From positions 32,001-96,000 of the forward strand of contig JBEKWR010000006.1 in NCBI GenBank assembly GCA_049512935.1: a stretch of 64,000 nt of DNA. The letters run 5' to 3'. The notes under the pieces are model-generated. The model did no database searches. It was given only the letters and a program-made list of their open reading frames with translations, and was not told the DNA's origin. Numbering within the stretch: the stretch's first letter is position 1; the number at the start of each line of letters is the position of its first letter. Shown here one piece after another: positions 14,206 to 16,713 of this stretch. This DNA is from Candidatus Bathyarchaeia archaeon (GTDB lineage: Archaea > Thermoproteota > Bathyarchaeia > Bathyarchaeales > Bathycorpusculaceae). The position numbers were made by a program, and so were the translations under genes.

Positions 14206-16713
14206 ATGAGCAAACCAGAAGCCCCAAAACAACCCGAAACCCAAAAACCAGAAGAACTGCGGATCGGCGTTTTCATCTGCCACTGCGGCATGAACATCGC
14301 AGGAACCGTGGACGTACCATCAGTCGCCGAGTACGCAAGAACCATACCCGACGTAGTCTACGTTAAAGAAAACCGCTACACCTGCGCTGACCCGGGACAA
14401 GAAGAAATCAGAAAAGCAATAAAAGAACAAAAATTGAACCGTGTCGTCGTAGCCGCTTGTAGCCCAAGGATGCATGAGCCAACATTTCGGAAAACCGTAA
14501 GTGAAGCAGGGTTAAATCCCTATGTGTTTGAAATGGCGAACATACGCGAGTTCGCTTCTTGGTGCCATCCCAATGCTCCAAAAGAAGCCACAGCAAAAGC
14601 AAAAGATATCGTAAGGATGGCTGTCGCCAAGGCGAGGCTGCTTAAGCCTCTTGAAACCATGGAGGTTCCTGTAACCAAAAACGCCTTGGTTATCGGCGGC
14701 GGCATTGCCGGCATCAACTCCGCTCTGGATTTGGCGAATATGGGGTTCCAAGTATACCTTGTCGAGAAGAACACGAGCATAGGAGGACACATGGCACAGC
14801 TCGACAAGACTTTTCCGACTTTGGATTGCAGCATATGAATTGAAGGACCTAGGATGGTGGAGGTAAATCGCCATCCTAAGGTCCAAGTAATAACCAATGC
14901 GGACATCCTCAGTGTGGAGGGGTTTGTAGGCAATTTCAAAGTTAAGGTCCGCAAGAACCCAAAGTACGTTGATGCCAAAAAATGTACTGGCTGCGGGGAA
15001 TGCAAAGACGCCTGCCCAATAGAATATCCCAATGAGTGGGATATGAACTTAGGCGTAAGAAAAGCCATCTCCATTCCGTTTGACCAAGCAGTGCCTCTGA
15101 TCTACTCGATAAACAGGGATTACTGCATAGAGTGCTTCAAATGCGTGGATGCCTGTGGTGCGCGTGAAGCCATCAACTTTGACCAAAAGCCCGAAGAAGT
15201 TGAATTGGACGTTGGAGCAATCATTGTAACAACGGGTTGTGACATTTATCTACCATATGATGACGCCACGTACGGCTATGGAAGATACGATAACGTAGTT
15301 ACAGCTTTGGAGTTTGAGAGACTCATCACAGCGGGCGGTCCAACAAGTGGACACGTAGTCCGCTCATCCGATGGAAAGACACCGAAAAGCGTTGCCATCA
15401 TTCAATGCGTCGGTTCAAGGGACGTAAACAAGTACGAATACTGTTCAGGTTTCTGCTGCATGTATGGGCTCAAAGAAGCCATCCTTCTGAAAGAACATTA
15501 CCATGATGACGTGGAAGTCTACATTTTCTACATGGATATGCGCACTCCCGCCAAAGGTTATGAAGAATTCTATCGACGAGCCCGTGAAAAGGGAATTACC
15601 TTCGTCATGGGAAAGCCGTCCCGAATAATGGAAGACCCAAAGACCAAAAATTTGATTATCCGAGCAGAGGACACGAAGCTGGGGCAGCCCATCGAAGTCG
15701 AAGCGGAGATGGTTGTGTTAAGCACAGCCGCCATACCGAGTAAGGGAGCCGAAGAATTGGCCAGCATCCTCCACATAACGCGAGGGTCAGACGGGTTCTT
15801 CATGGAAAGTCACCCGAAACTCAAACCAATGGACACGCCTATGGACGGAGTATTCCTAGCAGGTGCTTGCCAAGGACCAAAGGACATACCCTACAGCGTA
15901 GCCCAAGGAAGCGGCGCGGCTTCAAGAGCTGCCACCATTCTTTCGCAGCCGAAATGGAAGATAGAACCGATTGTCTCCATCGTTGACGTCGCCAAATGCA
16001 GAAACCCGAAAGCAAAGTGCGGTGTATGCGTGAAAAGCTGCCCCTTCGGAGCCATAACCGCGGTTGAGGGGCAACCAGCCCAGATCAACGCAGCTCAGTG
16101 CCATGGCTGCGGAACATGCGTTGCTGAATGCCCACAAGACGCCATAACCCAGATGCACTTTACGGATGAACAAATAACCTCACAAATCAGAGCCGCGCTG
16201 GAAAGGGACCCTGAAGACATTATACTGACGTTTATGTGTAACTGGTGAGGTTACGCCGGCGCGGACCGAGCGGGGACGAGCCGGCTTGAATACCCTCCGA
16301 CGACGAGGGCTATTCGGGTAATGTGCACAGGACGGGTAGACAGAGACTTCGTCATGGAAGCCTTTAGACTGGGAGCCGGAGGCGTATTGATTACCGCCTG
16401 CCATCTTCCCAACGACTGCCACTACATCTCTGGAAACGTCAGGATGAAAGCGCGCATGGATGCCTTAGCTGGCATGCTTCAAAAGCTTGGATTGAGCCCG
16501 CATAGATTCAGGGTTGAGTACGTTTCGTCAGCTGAAGGAGAGAAATTCGTCAGCATCATCAAGGAAATGACTAGTCAAATGCAAGCTTTAGGCAAAGACA
16601 AGATACTCGCGGAAAACGCAAAGCTTCGACCAACCTTAGAGAACATGCTGAAACGCAAAGCAGCCGCCCCAGCCCCTGCAGCTAAACCCGCCGATCAAGC
16701 ACCCGCAAAGTAG
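14206..16713 (+). CDS. hdrA: Selenoprotein HdrA-MvhD(VhuD) fusion, 835 aa, Sec at residues 211 and 681
   Basis: Three track ORFs share one frame, separated only by TGA 14836-14838 ([20 protein letters not shown]) and TGA 16246-16248 ([18 protein letters not shown]). SD GAGGAG precedes ATG 14206; FAD motif [14 protein letters not shown]; ferredoxin motifs. Confidence 0.93.
14845..14884 (+). promoter_or_regulatory. Stem-loop 6 nt after first in-frame UGA (candidate recoding element)
   Basis: GGACCU-AGGAUGGUG / CGCCAUCCU-A-AGGUCC: 15 bp, one bulged A, 9-nt loop. Confidence 0.65.
16255..16285 (+). promoter_or_regulatory. Stem-loop 6 nt after second in-frame UGA (candidate recoding element)
   Basis: GCCGGC/GCCGGC closing stem, internal tandem GA/GA, GAGCG loop. 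Confidence 0.5.

Follow-up and report, generated by a model that had tools for sequence, protein, structure and literature searches.

The window studied here is a stretch of 64,000 nucleotides from Candidatus Bathyarchaeia archaeon (assembly GCA_049512935.1, contig JBEKWR010000006.1, positions 32,001 to 96,000 of the forward strand), and coordinates below are positions within it unless another contig is named. It carries a gene for a fusion of HdrA and MvhD whose reading frame runs through two TGA codons, at which we predict insertion of selenocysteine (Sec) in the place of cysteine (Cys). The gene and the two codons are:

14206 to 16713, plus strand: HdrA2-type HdrA-MvhD fusion gene of 835 codons, ending in TAG, with codons 211 and 681 as the predicted Sec positions
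14836 to 14838, plus strand: first UGA (UGA-1, Sec211) in the context TLDCSI-TGA-IEGP, equivalent to Cys/Sec197 of HdrA
16246 to 16248, plus strand: second UGA (UGA-2, Sec681) in the context FMCNW-TGA-GYAGAD, equivalent to Cys16 of MvhD

Read in frame 1, this interval has 835 sense positions before the TAG that closes it, and its internal stops are two, both TGA. An earlier note, made from the letters of the window alone, had joined three open reading frames (ORFs) across TGAs at 14836 and 16246 and expected standard annotation to split the gene. The in-frame reading confirms the junctions, and a plain ORF listing indeed gives three same-frame pieces (14140-14838, 14854-16248 and 16321-16713).

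Pfam places a Rossmann motif for flavin adenine dinucleotide (FAD) at residues 160-200 of the product, ferredoxin (Fer4) regions at 254-317 and 604-648, and an FlpD/MvhD domain (PF02662) at 673-796, the last with 153 bits versus a cut-off of 22.3. Residues 16-663 align end to end with positions 2-648 of HdrA (5ODC_A, E 7.5e-252), and residues 671-803 with the MvhD chains 5ODC_D and 7BKB_F (E 1e-37 to 1e-41), 5ODC being the solved MvhADG-HdrABC complex. The best NCBIfam model, NF040770 (HdrA2), scores 1075.8 bits over residues 19-798 and 774 of its 777 positions, with U scored as C. HdrA2 is, in the portion of PMC6019823 available to us, the form of HdrA with a C-terminal MvhD extension. By homology, the protein is an HdrA2-type HdrA-MvhD flavo/Fe-S fusion with one predicted Sec per module.

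The first UGA (U211) aligns to Cys197 of HdrA in 5ODC_A, and the alignment is unbroken across codon 211. Position 197 is Sec197 in a 2026 cryo-EM structure from M. maripaludis, where the available text discusses a Cys-Sec relay to FAD (PMC13518236); to that extent the earlier note was right to place this TGA at the Sec position of methanococcal HdrA. According to Chadwick et al., Cys197 of HdrA ligates the N-terminal cluster that belongs to the partner protomer (PMC9012536). The second UGA (U681) aligns to Cys16 of MvhD (5ODC_D), one among five conserved Cys, of which those at positions 13, 42, 67 and 72 are kept as Cys while position 16 is the predicted Sec. The spacing of 51 residues between Cys16 and Cys67 fits the '50 codons apart' given for VhuD in the available part of PMC4989117, which makes Cys16 a candidate for one of the two VhuD Sec sites.

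As standard gene calling would report three ORFs here, a pseudogene, an assembly error or three small genes might be supposed, an explanation that the comparison with relatives effectively refutes. The frame was aligned by MAFFT with the 120 top-ranking full-length homologues from the database (75-77% identical, 806-830 aa; those bearing a source name are mostly labelled Bathyarchaeia), and Cys occupies both TGA columns in all 120, in the motifs TLDCSIC and FLCNWCSYAGAD. Because both columns are Cys throughout, a chance origin of the TGA pattern is excluded, and the assignment of both TGAs in the earlier note to conserved Cys of the HdrA and MvhD modules stands. The identical two TGAs occur in eight further full-length orthologues of the same genus and in four of a sister genus. 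TGA-1 is kept in 13/13 full-length orthologues of this Sec clade and TGA-2 in all 15 genome orthologues that cover the site, as well as in 41 metagenome contigs. Independent peat and wetland assemblies from three studies, at least 99% identical over the stretch, show no difference at either TGA. The RNA run X24 contributed only contigs of relatives, most pieces being 90-99% alike and some bins uncovered, and carries no weight here for expression or transcript ends. Sequencing error is ruled out, because the same TGAs recur in orthologues, metagenome contigs and these independent assemblies.

The nine full-length orthologues of the genus share 79-93% nucleotide identity over the whole gene, and the 13 full-length orthologues contain no further stops or frameshifts, with substitutions that are mostly synonymous. 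The middle and last pieces of the frame lack plausible starts of their own at the domain boundaries, which, with the uninterrupted alignment to 5ODC_A, argues against three genes. One partial copy speaks for a broken gene: on contig C5 of genome G098 (L032), the match covers residues 238-835 only and has extra stops upstream, while SepSecS and the PSTK-aSelB fusion close to it are intact; the copy may be decaying or rearranged. Elsewhere in the genome of the window TGA serves as a normal stop, closing 308 of the 1112 ORFs that reach 250 aa. We are highly confident that the two-UGA HdrA-MvhD gene is a genuine selenoprotein gene, in which Sec insertion is predicted from the conservation just described.

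The same genome encodes a full archaeal Sec set (tRNA-Sec, PSTK, SepSecS, EFSec and SelD). Most of it, which the earlier note had passed over, sits 2.7-7.6 kb downstream of the HdrA-MvhD gene:

19425 to 19510, plus strand: tRNA-Sec with anticodon UCA and a 9/4 acceptor/T-stem fold (Rfam RF01852, 64.5 bits, gathering score 47; ARAGORN tRNA-SeC)
20065 to 21396, minus strand: SepSecS, O-phosphoseryl-tRNA(Sec) selenium transferase (Pfam PF05889, 1.8e-116; TIGR03531, 483.5 bits, cut-off 224.85)
22128 to 24323, plus strand: PSTK-aSelB fusion ORF of 731 aa, residues 8-240 being the kinase and 277-731 a Sec elongation factor of archaeal type

SelD lies on contig C11 and is Cys-type (motif VHGCSCK; NF010705, 340.7 bits). 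The pathway is that of SepSecS and PSTK, not SelA. The elongation factor matches M. maripaludis aSelB (PDB 4AC9) over its full length (E 3.8e-75), while bacterial SelB (5LZB, 4ZU9) aligns with it over domains I-III only, and its C-terminus matches aSelB_III and the RIFT domain of eEFSec (a RIFT-like domain IV). The pattern search of the locus had returned many Firmicutes SelB proteins at 27-37% identity; identification as bacterial SelB was rejected on the archaeal/eukaryotic nature of domains III and IV and the full-length match to 4AC9. With this machinery, the Cys columns and the orthologues in hand, the 835-aa di-Sec HdrA-MvhD flavo/Fe-S protein proposed in the earlier note is borne out.

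The distribution of SepSecS follows that of the TGA form. We scored 120 genomes of the genus for both, and the two-TGA gene is present in 11, full-length in nine (that of the window, G094, G122, G097, G123, G009, G067, G132 and G086; 86-93% identity) and partial in two (G074 and G098); the rest of the genus has a Cys form that is at most 73% identical. SepSecS is found in ten of the 120, namely the TGA-form genomes minus G009, which is 56% complete; it is absent from all 109 genomes that have the Cys form only. Where present, it mostly lies within a few kb of the two-TGA gene. In a class-wide sample of 401 genomes, SepSecS occurs in 12 genomes and in 6 of 131 genera, and in the sister genus (g21) all four SepSecS-positive genomes carry the two-TGA gene. 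In all, the gene is distributed over at least 15 species-level genomes and the 41 metagenome contigs, from peat and wetland. Our search of the window's own genome, which covered the known archaeal selenoprotein families only, yielded no second selenoprotein: SelD is Cys-type, four NiFe large subunits, two other MvhD domains and Prx are without TGA, and no molybdopterin enzyme was found. Naming selenoproteins by codon usage around the 3657 in-frame TGA contexts of the genome was also tried and abandoned as too noisy.

These data bear on a second explanation, namely that the UGAs are read as Cys, Trp or another standard residue through near-cognate or suppressor decoding stimulated by the hairpins described below. 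Hairpins 6-8 nt downstream of a stop codon are classic stimulators of read-through, which counts for this explanation. The Sec codon redefinition element (SRE) of eukaryotes gives Sec-independent read-through without a Sec insertion sequence (SECIS) element (PMC4561486), and cross-talk of Cys and Sec on tRNA-Sec is discussed by Mukai et al., as far as the available text of PMC8762117 goes. Against it stand the presence of SepSecS in 10/11 TGA-form genomes and in 0/109 Cys-only genomes of the genus, the fact that the Sec genes mostly adjoin the selenoprotein gene, and the Cys that every homologue has at both sites, a pattern typical of Sec/Cys pairs. We regard read-through with a standard residue as very improbable.

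Several further observations concern the Sec island and its surroundings. PSTK and aSelB joined in a single ORF are on record from Bathyarchaeota and from one Archaeoglobus (PMC8762117, in the part available). Contigs L056, L063 and L065, labelled Limnocylindrales, Nanoarchaeia and Sulfotelmatobacter, encode PSTK-aSelB proteins 82-87% identical to ours and are probably mis-binned or mislabelled Bathyarchaeia. Between the selenoprotein gene and SepSecS lie 3351 nt (16714-20064), which hold two ORFs without a Pfam match (17115-18215 and 18505-18849) and a DUF1801 gene; as the same gap in G094 is about 356 nt, that of the window looks like an insertion into the Sec island. As drawn by ARAGORN, the eighth acceptor pair of the tRNA-Sec is a C:U mismatch; its 3' CCA is genome-encoded, and a U6:U67 mismatch is mentioned in the literature for one tRNA-Sec of wetland Bathyarchaeota. 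Elsewhere in the window, two tRNA-Cys(GCA) genes (4095-4169 and 7655-7729, minus strand), 3.5 kb apart, flank GNAT and glycosyltransferase genes.

Folding of the coding sequence downstream of each UGA gives a stable hairpin, a feature that the earlier note does not have:

14845 to 14884, plus strand: hairpin 1, a stem of 13-16 bp with one bulged A and a variable apical loop; minimum free energy (MFE) -25.8 kcal/mol, z -5.2
16255 to 16285, plus strand: hairpin 2, in which a 6-bp GC helix is followed by a helix of 2 bp, an internal loop of tandem GA/GA, a helix of 2-3 bp and a loop of 3-5 nt

Both stems begin at +10, that is, after a 6-nt spacer behind each UGA, and the apical loop of hairpin 2 opens with G (GAGCG). 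The two stretches are near-invariant in nucleotides among the 13 orthologues at site 1 and the 15 at site 2, the variation falling at a synonymous site of the spacer and in the apical loops; at site 2, columns 10-40 are invariant in the 15 genomes but for two loop columns. To compare this with the rest of the gene, synonymous diversity was computed in 825 sliding windows of 15 codons over the Sec-clade alignment. The windows just after U211 and U681 take ranks 1-4 and 9 of the 825 for lowest diversity (0.072 and 0.093, respectively, versus a mean of 0.296 and standard deviation of 0.078), and nearly all of the 30 lowest cluster at the two UGA sites. A third patch of low synonymous diversity, away from any UGA, was seen at codons 61-65 (about 14386-14400; 0.10 versus a mean of 0.30).

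Random synonymous recodings of the same stretches rarely fold as stably (0/1000 at site 1 and 15/1000 at site 2), and Cys forms of the gene have at the equivalent stretches a mean MFE of only -9.5 kcal/mol (site 1, n=19) and -14.3 kcal/mol (site 2, n=18), with no fixed stem. Residue changes between the Sec and Cys forms build the stems (GPRM versus GPKM; U-G-Y versus C-S-Y; ADR versus ADL). Among genuine metagenome copies of site 2, hairpin 2 is kept in 40 of 41, and its variants include a rebuilt top helix (CCU/GGG, then CCU/AGG) and a basal change from G-C to G-U. Each UGA is thus followed by a very strong nucleotide constraint that coincides with a stable fold, and we infer a function of the hairpins in recoding. 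When 1368 open-frame TGA contexts across the genome were scanned for hairpins behind the TGA, these two sites were the only credible coding candidates. The other top matches of the scan were rejected, being in non-coding frames of the GC-rich contigs C41 and C45, whose composition is unlike the rest of the genome, so that they may be contamination. A kink-turn-like reading of hairpin 1, made by eye (GAA before the stem, a single A after it), was also dropped, because the 3-bp lower helix that it needs is lost as an Ile codon varies (AUU, AUA, AUC).

A comparable arrangement is found in another gene of more distant relatives. Five further SepSecS-positive Bathyarchaeia have a Cys-type HdrA and a Sec-type SelD (G-U-[S/K]-C-K), three of them (G039, G170 and G230) with an ORF of PSTK-aSelB size, 725-767 aa, beside SepSecS. 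A hairpin begins at +9 or +10 after the SelD UGA in 5/5, with MFEs of -17.6, -18.5, -19.8, -16.3 and -12.6 kcal/mol and with 31, 33, 3, 65 and 212 of 1000 recodings, respectively, folding equally well; the Cys-type SelD of the window's own genome has no such hairpin (482/1000 recodings fold as well). No canonical SECIS motif was found within 400 nt downstream of any of the five Sec-type genes. In G039 (contig C92; L133/L177), one and the same SelD gene has a hairpin behind its Sec UGA and none behind the UGA stop that ends it. This stop is awkward for a SECIS that acts at a distance, since such an element should tend to misread it (by an argument made in the available part of PMC4989117), and the pattern is easy to reconcile with a local signal. 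TGA-flagged HdrA homologues in G336, G039 and G170 were discarded, as these genes are Cys-type and the TGA is merely where they end.

Every SECIS element hitherto described from archaea is located in an untranslated region (UTR), according to the available portions of PMC11227280, PMC4989117 and PMC11881835: methanogens have a GAA_A kink-turn-like hairpin in the 3' UTR (PMC11881835), and Asgard archaea an AUGA_GA element shared by hdrA and frhD (PMC4989117, PMC11227280). It could therefore be argued from these precedents, and from the archaeal type of the elongation factor, that the gene is a real Sec gene served by an unrecognised archaeal-style SECIS in its 3' or 5' UTR, the hairpins assisting in the manner of an SRE or serving another end such as mRNA stability or a pause for cofactor insertion. 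Eukaryotic SRE stem-loops beside the UGA do cooperate with a 3'-UTR SECIS (PMC4561486). There is also room for such an element, as a 400-nt non-coding stretch follows the stop codon in the window and a short segment right after the stop is common to 6/9 orthologues.

We searched for it in several ways. No segment of the 3' flanks is common to all of the first nine orthologues compared; those of G067, G132 and G086 are unlike the rest, yet in these genomes neither the UGAs nor the hairpins are lost. When 13 orthologues were scanned under strict motif definitions, together with 1 kb on either side, no GAA_A or RUGA_GA/AA hairpin common to the 3' flanks emerged, a SECIS-like motif being present in 1/13 only, at +94. 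Rfam gave no SECIS match at E<=10. The strongest synonymous constraint in the gene, moreover, sits right after both UGAs, and the UGA stop of the Sec-type SelD of G039 would be prone to misreading by a distance-acting element (PMC4989117, in the part cited above). On balance we consider a UTR SECIS with subsidiary hairpins unlikely, although it is the alternative to be taken most seriously.

As to the partners of the protein, the earlier note had rightly found no hdrBC or mvhAG in the window, but its conclusion that the redox partner could not be named did not hold. Contig C3 of the same genome carries an operon of hdrC (Fer4_8), hdrB (two CCG domains) and the genes of the NiFe small (mvhG) and large (mvhA) subunits, without hdrA and mvhD; this hdrB is the sole CCG-domain gene found in the genome. 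The operon lacks exactly the subunits that the gene of the window supplies, and we therefore infer an electron-bifurcating H2:ferredoxin/disulfide Hdr-Mvh complex, made up of the window protein and the HdrC, HdrB, MvhG and MvhA of C3. The genome holds a single HdrA-MvhD match at E<=1e-200 and no Cys paralogue of comparable similarity; G132, G086, G345 and G333 also keep a Cys copy, which is adjacent in three of them. The gene follows a polyferredoxin gene, as the earlier note had observed:

13221 to 14159, plus strand: polyferredoxin gene of 312 aa, with multiple Fer4 matches in Pfam and FwdF/VhuB-like NCBIfam matches below cut-offs

It lies directly upstream, is probably co-transcribed with the HdrA-MvhD gene, and its product would be an electron outlet or inlet of the complex. 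HdrA typically acts with HdrBC on the heterodisulfide of coenzymes M and B (CoM-S-S-CoB); the complex of this presumed non-methanogen may reduce that or another disulfide.

Contig C3 has three [NiFe]-hydrogenase gene sets in about 25 kb (L042 2636-11687, L043 4060-7940): the hdrCB-mvhGA operon, one set with NuoE/F/G-like diaphorase genes, and one beside a gene for a 638-aa Fer4_22/NAD-binding protein. On contig C5 (L044 2832-6371, minus strand), a 422-aa protein with ferredoxin domains as well as two MvhD/FlpD domains is encoded upstream of NfnAB/GltD-like genes, forming a second MvhD-containing electron-transfer module, without TGA.

The reading we prefer joins these results: a real Sec gene, recoded through local hairpin signals, whose product serves in an Hdr-Mvh complex. 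We put its probability at roughly 60%. In the mechanism that we propose, Sec would replace Cys197 of HdrA and Cys16 of MvhD, and both UGAs would be decoded by the adjacent tRNA-Sec, PSTK-aSelB and SepSecS together with the Cys-type SelD from elsewhere in the genome. The recoding signal would be local, each UGA being followed by a 6-nt spacer and then by a stable coding-sequence hairpin; with such a spacer, the hairpin would be placed at the mRNA entrance of the ribosome when the UGA is in the A site. Each hairpin would mark its own UGA for delivery of Sec-tRNA by PSTK-aSelB, at the position of a bacterial SECIS, and no 3'-UTR SECIS of the methanogen or Asgard kind would act. That the hairpins are the main cis recoding signal is, in our judgement, reasonably probable, whereas the more general statement that archaeal/eukaryotic-type trans factors work here with bacterial-style cis signals (one in-ORF hairpin per UGA and no UTR SECIS) stands at about even odds.

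A number of observations weigh against this reading. The case for Sec insertion is genomic. The NF040770 score of 1075.8 falls just under the cut-off of 1100. Double-sided pair changes number 0/13 in hairpin 1 and 0/11 in hairpin 2, where 11/13 and 9/11 pairs, respectively, are invariant and the others show only wobble-type changes and a register shift. Shuffle controls for covariation were flat and uninformative, and since the stems hardly vary, the covariation counts themselves inform little; with no compensatory change, the data demonstrate site-specific nucleotide constraint and not base pairing itself. The two hairpins are alike in geometry and have no common sequence motif. Nor is there an obvious factor to bind the hairpins: domains III and IV of the elongation factor are archaeal, and it lacks the winged-helix SECIS-binding domain of bacteria. 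One metagenome copy (L158, 1167 nt) has CNW-TGA-SYAGADL without a hairpin. It belongs to a more divergent HdrA-MvhD, and the 3' part of the contig looks unrelated; it could come from another lineage that uses a different signal, or be erroneous or chimeric. The hairpin is weakly supported in two of the five SelD lineages, those with 65 and 212 of 1000 recodings. Finally, the strict motif scan required perfect helices, and a degenerate or novel 3'-UTR element could therefore escape it.

A Sec-encoding and Sec-using Bathyarchaeota gene cluster with a PSTK-aSelB fusion was published by Mukai et al. in 2022 (Front Genet; PMC8762117), so that neither the type of locus nor the gene is new, as far as the available part of that paper goes. 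The cluster resembles ours in its lineage label, its PSTK-aSelB ORF next to SepSecS, its inclusion of a selenoprotein gene and its wetland or peat origin. In the available main text, the selenoprotein is not named and SECIS elements are not mentioned, and the same gene may already be depicted in a figure (Fig. 9B) or the supplements; what the present analysis adds to that text is the HdrA-MvhD gene with its two Sec codons, the distribution of this gene across the genus, and the hairpins within it. In 2017 Mukai et al. had treated selenoproteins and the use of Sec among TACK and Asgard archaea (PMC5424206), a paper that a 2022 review cites for the Bathyarchaeota system (PMC9499178), while a 2026 review of prokaryotic selenoproteomes assigns archaeal Sec to Methanococcales, Methanopyrales and Asgard only (PMC13188914). 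The Bathyarchaeota system has been dealt with only briefly, in work on tRNA-dependent Cys synthesis. In the literature that we searched on Sec in Bathyarchaeota/Bathyarchaeia and on archaeal SECIS and HdrA, no SECIS is described for this lineage, and the in-gene cis signal appears to be new.

Compared with HdrA and VhuD of Methanococcales and Methanopyrus, the window protein has the same HdrA Sec position (U211 being residue 197), the same MvhD/VhuD family and, by prediction, the same role in a bifurcating Hdr-hydrogenase complex. The methanogens, however, have separate genes, a GAA_A SECIS in the 3' UTR and a VhuD with two Sec, whereas here the proteins are fused with one Sec per module, no GAA_A motif was found and methanogenesis is not indicated for the host. 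The hdrA-frhD/vhuD pairs of Asgard archaea (Loki and others) share with our gene several Sec in Hdr/MvhD proteins on one mRNA, a non-methanogen host and SepSecS, PSTK and EFSec; they differ in that one eukaryote-like SECIS of AUGA_GA type, placed beyond the second gene, serves the pair and acts over about 2 kb, while here the flanks are unconserved and each UGA has its own adjacent hairpin. HdrA2 of Methanosarcina has the same fused full-length architecture (NF040770 positions 1-774 of 777; PMC6019823, in the part available to us). It differs in being a Cys protein that works with reduced coenzyme F420 (F420H2) and CoM-S-S-CoB. Its gene, too, neighbours a polyferredoxin gene.

The bacterial SECIS (bSECIS) is likewise an in-ORF stem-loop directly 3' of the UGA, with a loop starting with G and one element per UGA (PMC4989117, in the available text). 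Its readers, however, are the C-terminal winged-helix domains of SelB in bacteria, where the pathway is based on SelA, while here aSelB lacks these domains and the pathway is that of PSTK and SepSecS. Eukaryotic SREs and the hymenopteran read-through element (HRE) are also coding-sequence stem-loops beside the UGA, including in SPS/SelD genes (PMC4561486), and were proposed to descend from the bSECIS by Mariotti et al. in 2015 (PMC4561486); the SRE only assists a 3'-UTR SECIS, and no such SECIS was found here. With no bacterial SelB domain or SelA pathway on the one hand and no UTR SECIS found on the other, the hairpins are outside the bSECIS family and probably outside that of the SRE as well.

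If the hairpins are recoding signals, the position and type of the SECIS are not fixed by domain, and the rule that its position tracks the domain of life would be broken. There would then be a new coupling of an aSelB-type factor to a local hairpin, possibly via the fused PSTK or the RIFT domain, and a missing archaeal link for the proposal that the SRE derives from the bacterial SECIS, with a bearing on the kinship of bSECIS, SRE and eukaryotic SECIS. The whole Sec apparatus of this genome would be kept for a single gene. The locus is compact and open to experiment, a lone selenoprotein gene and its two Sec codons lying beside the tRNA and enzymes, and archaeal SECIS recognition would become approachable there with an element of 31-40 nt and a single fused factor. 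There is also a consequence for annotation: because gene callers split the gene into three, metabolic reconstructions miss the sole HdrA partner of the HdrBC-MvhAG module, and the annotations so affected concern abundant peat archaea.

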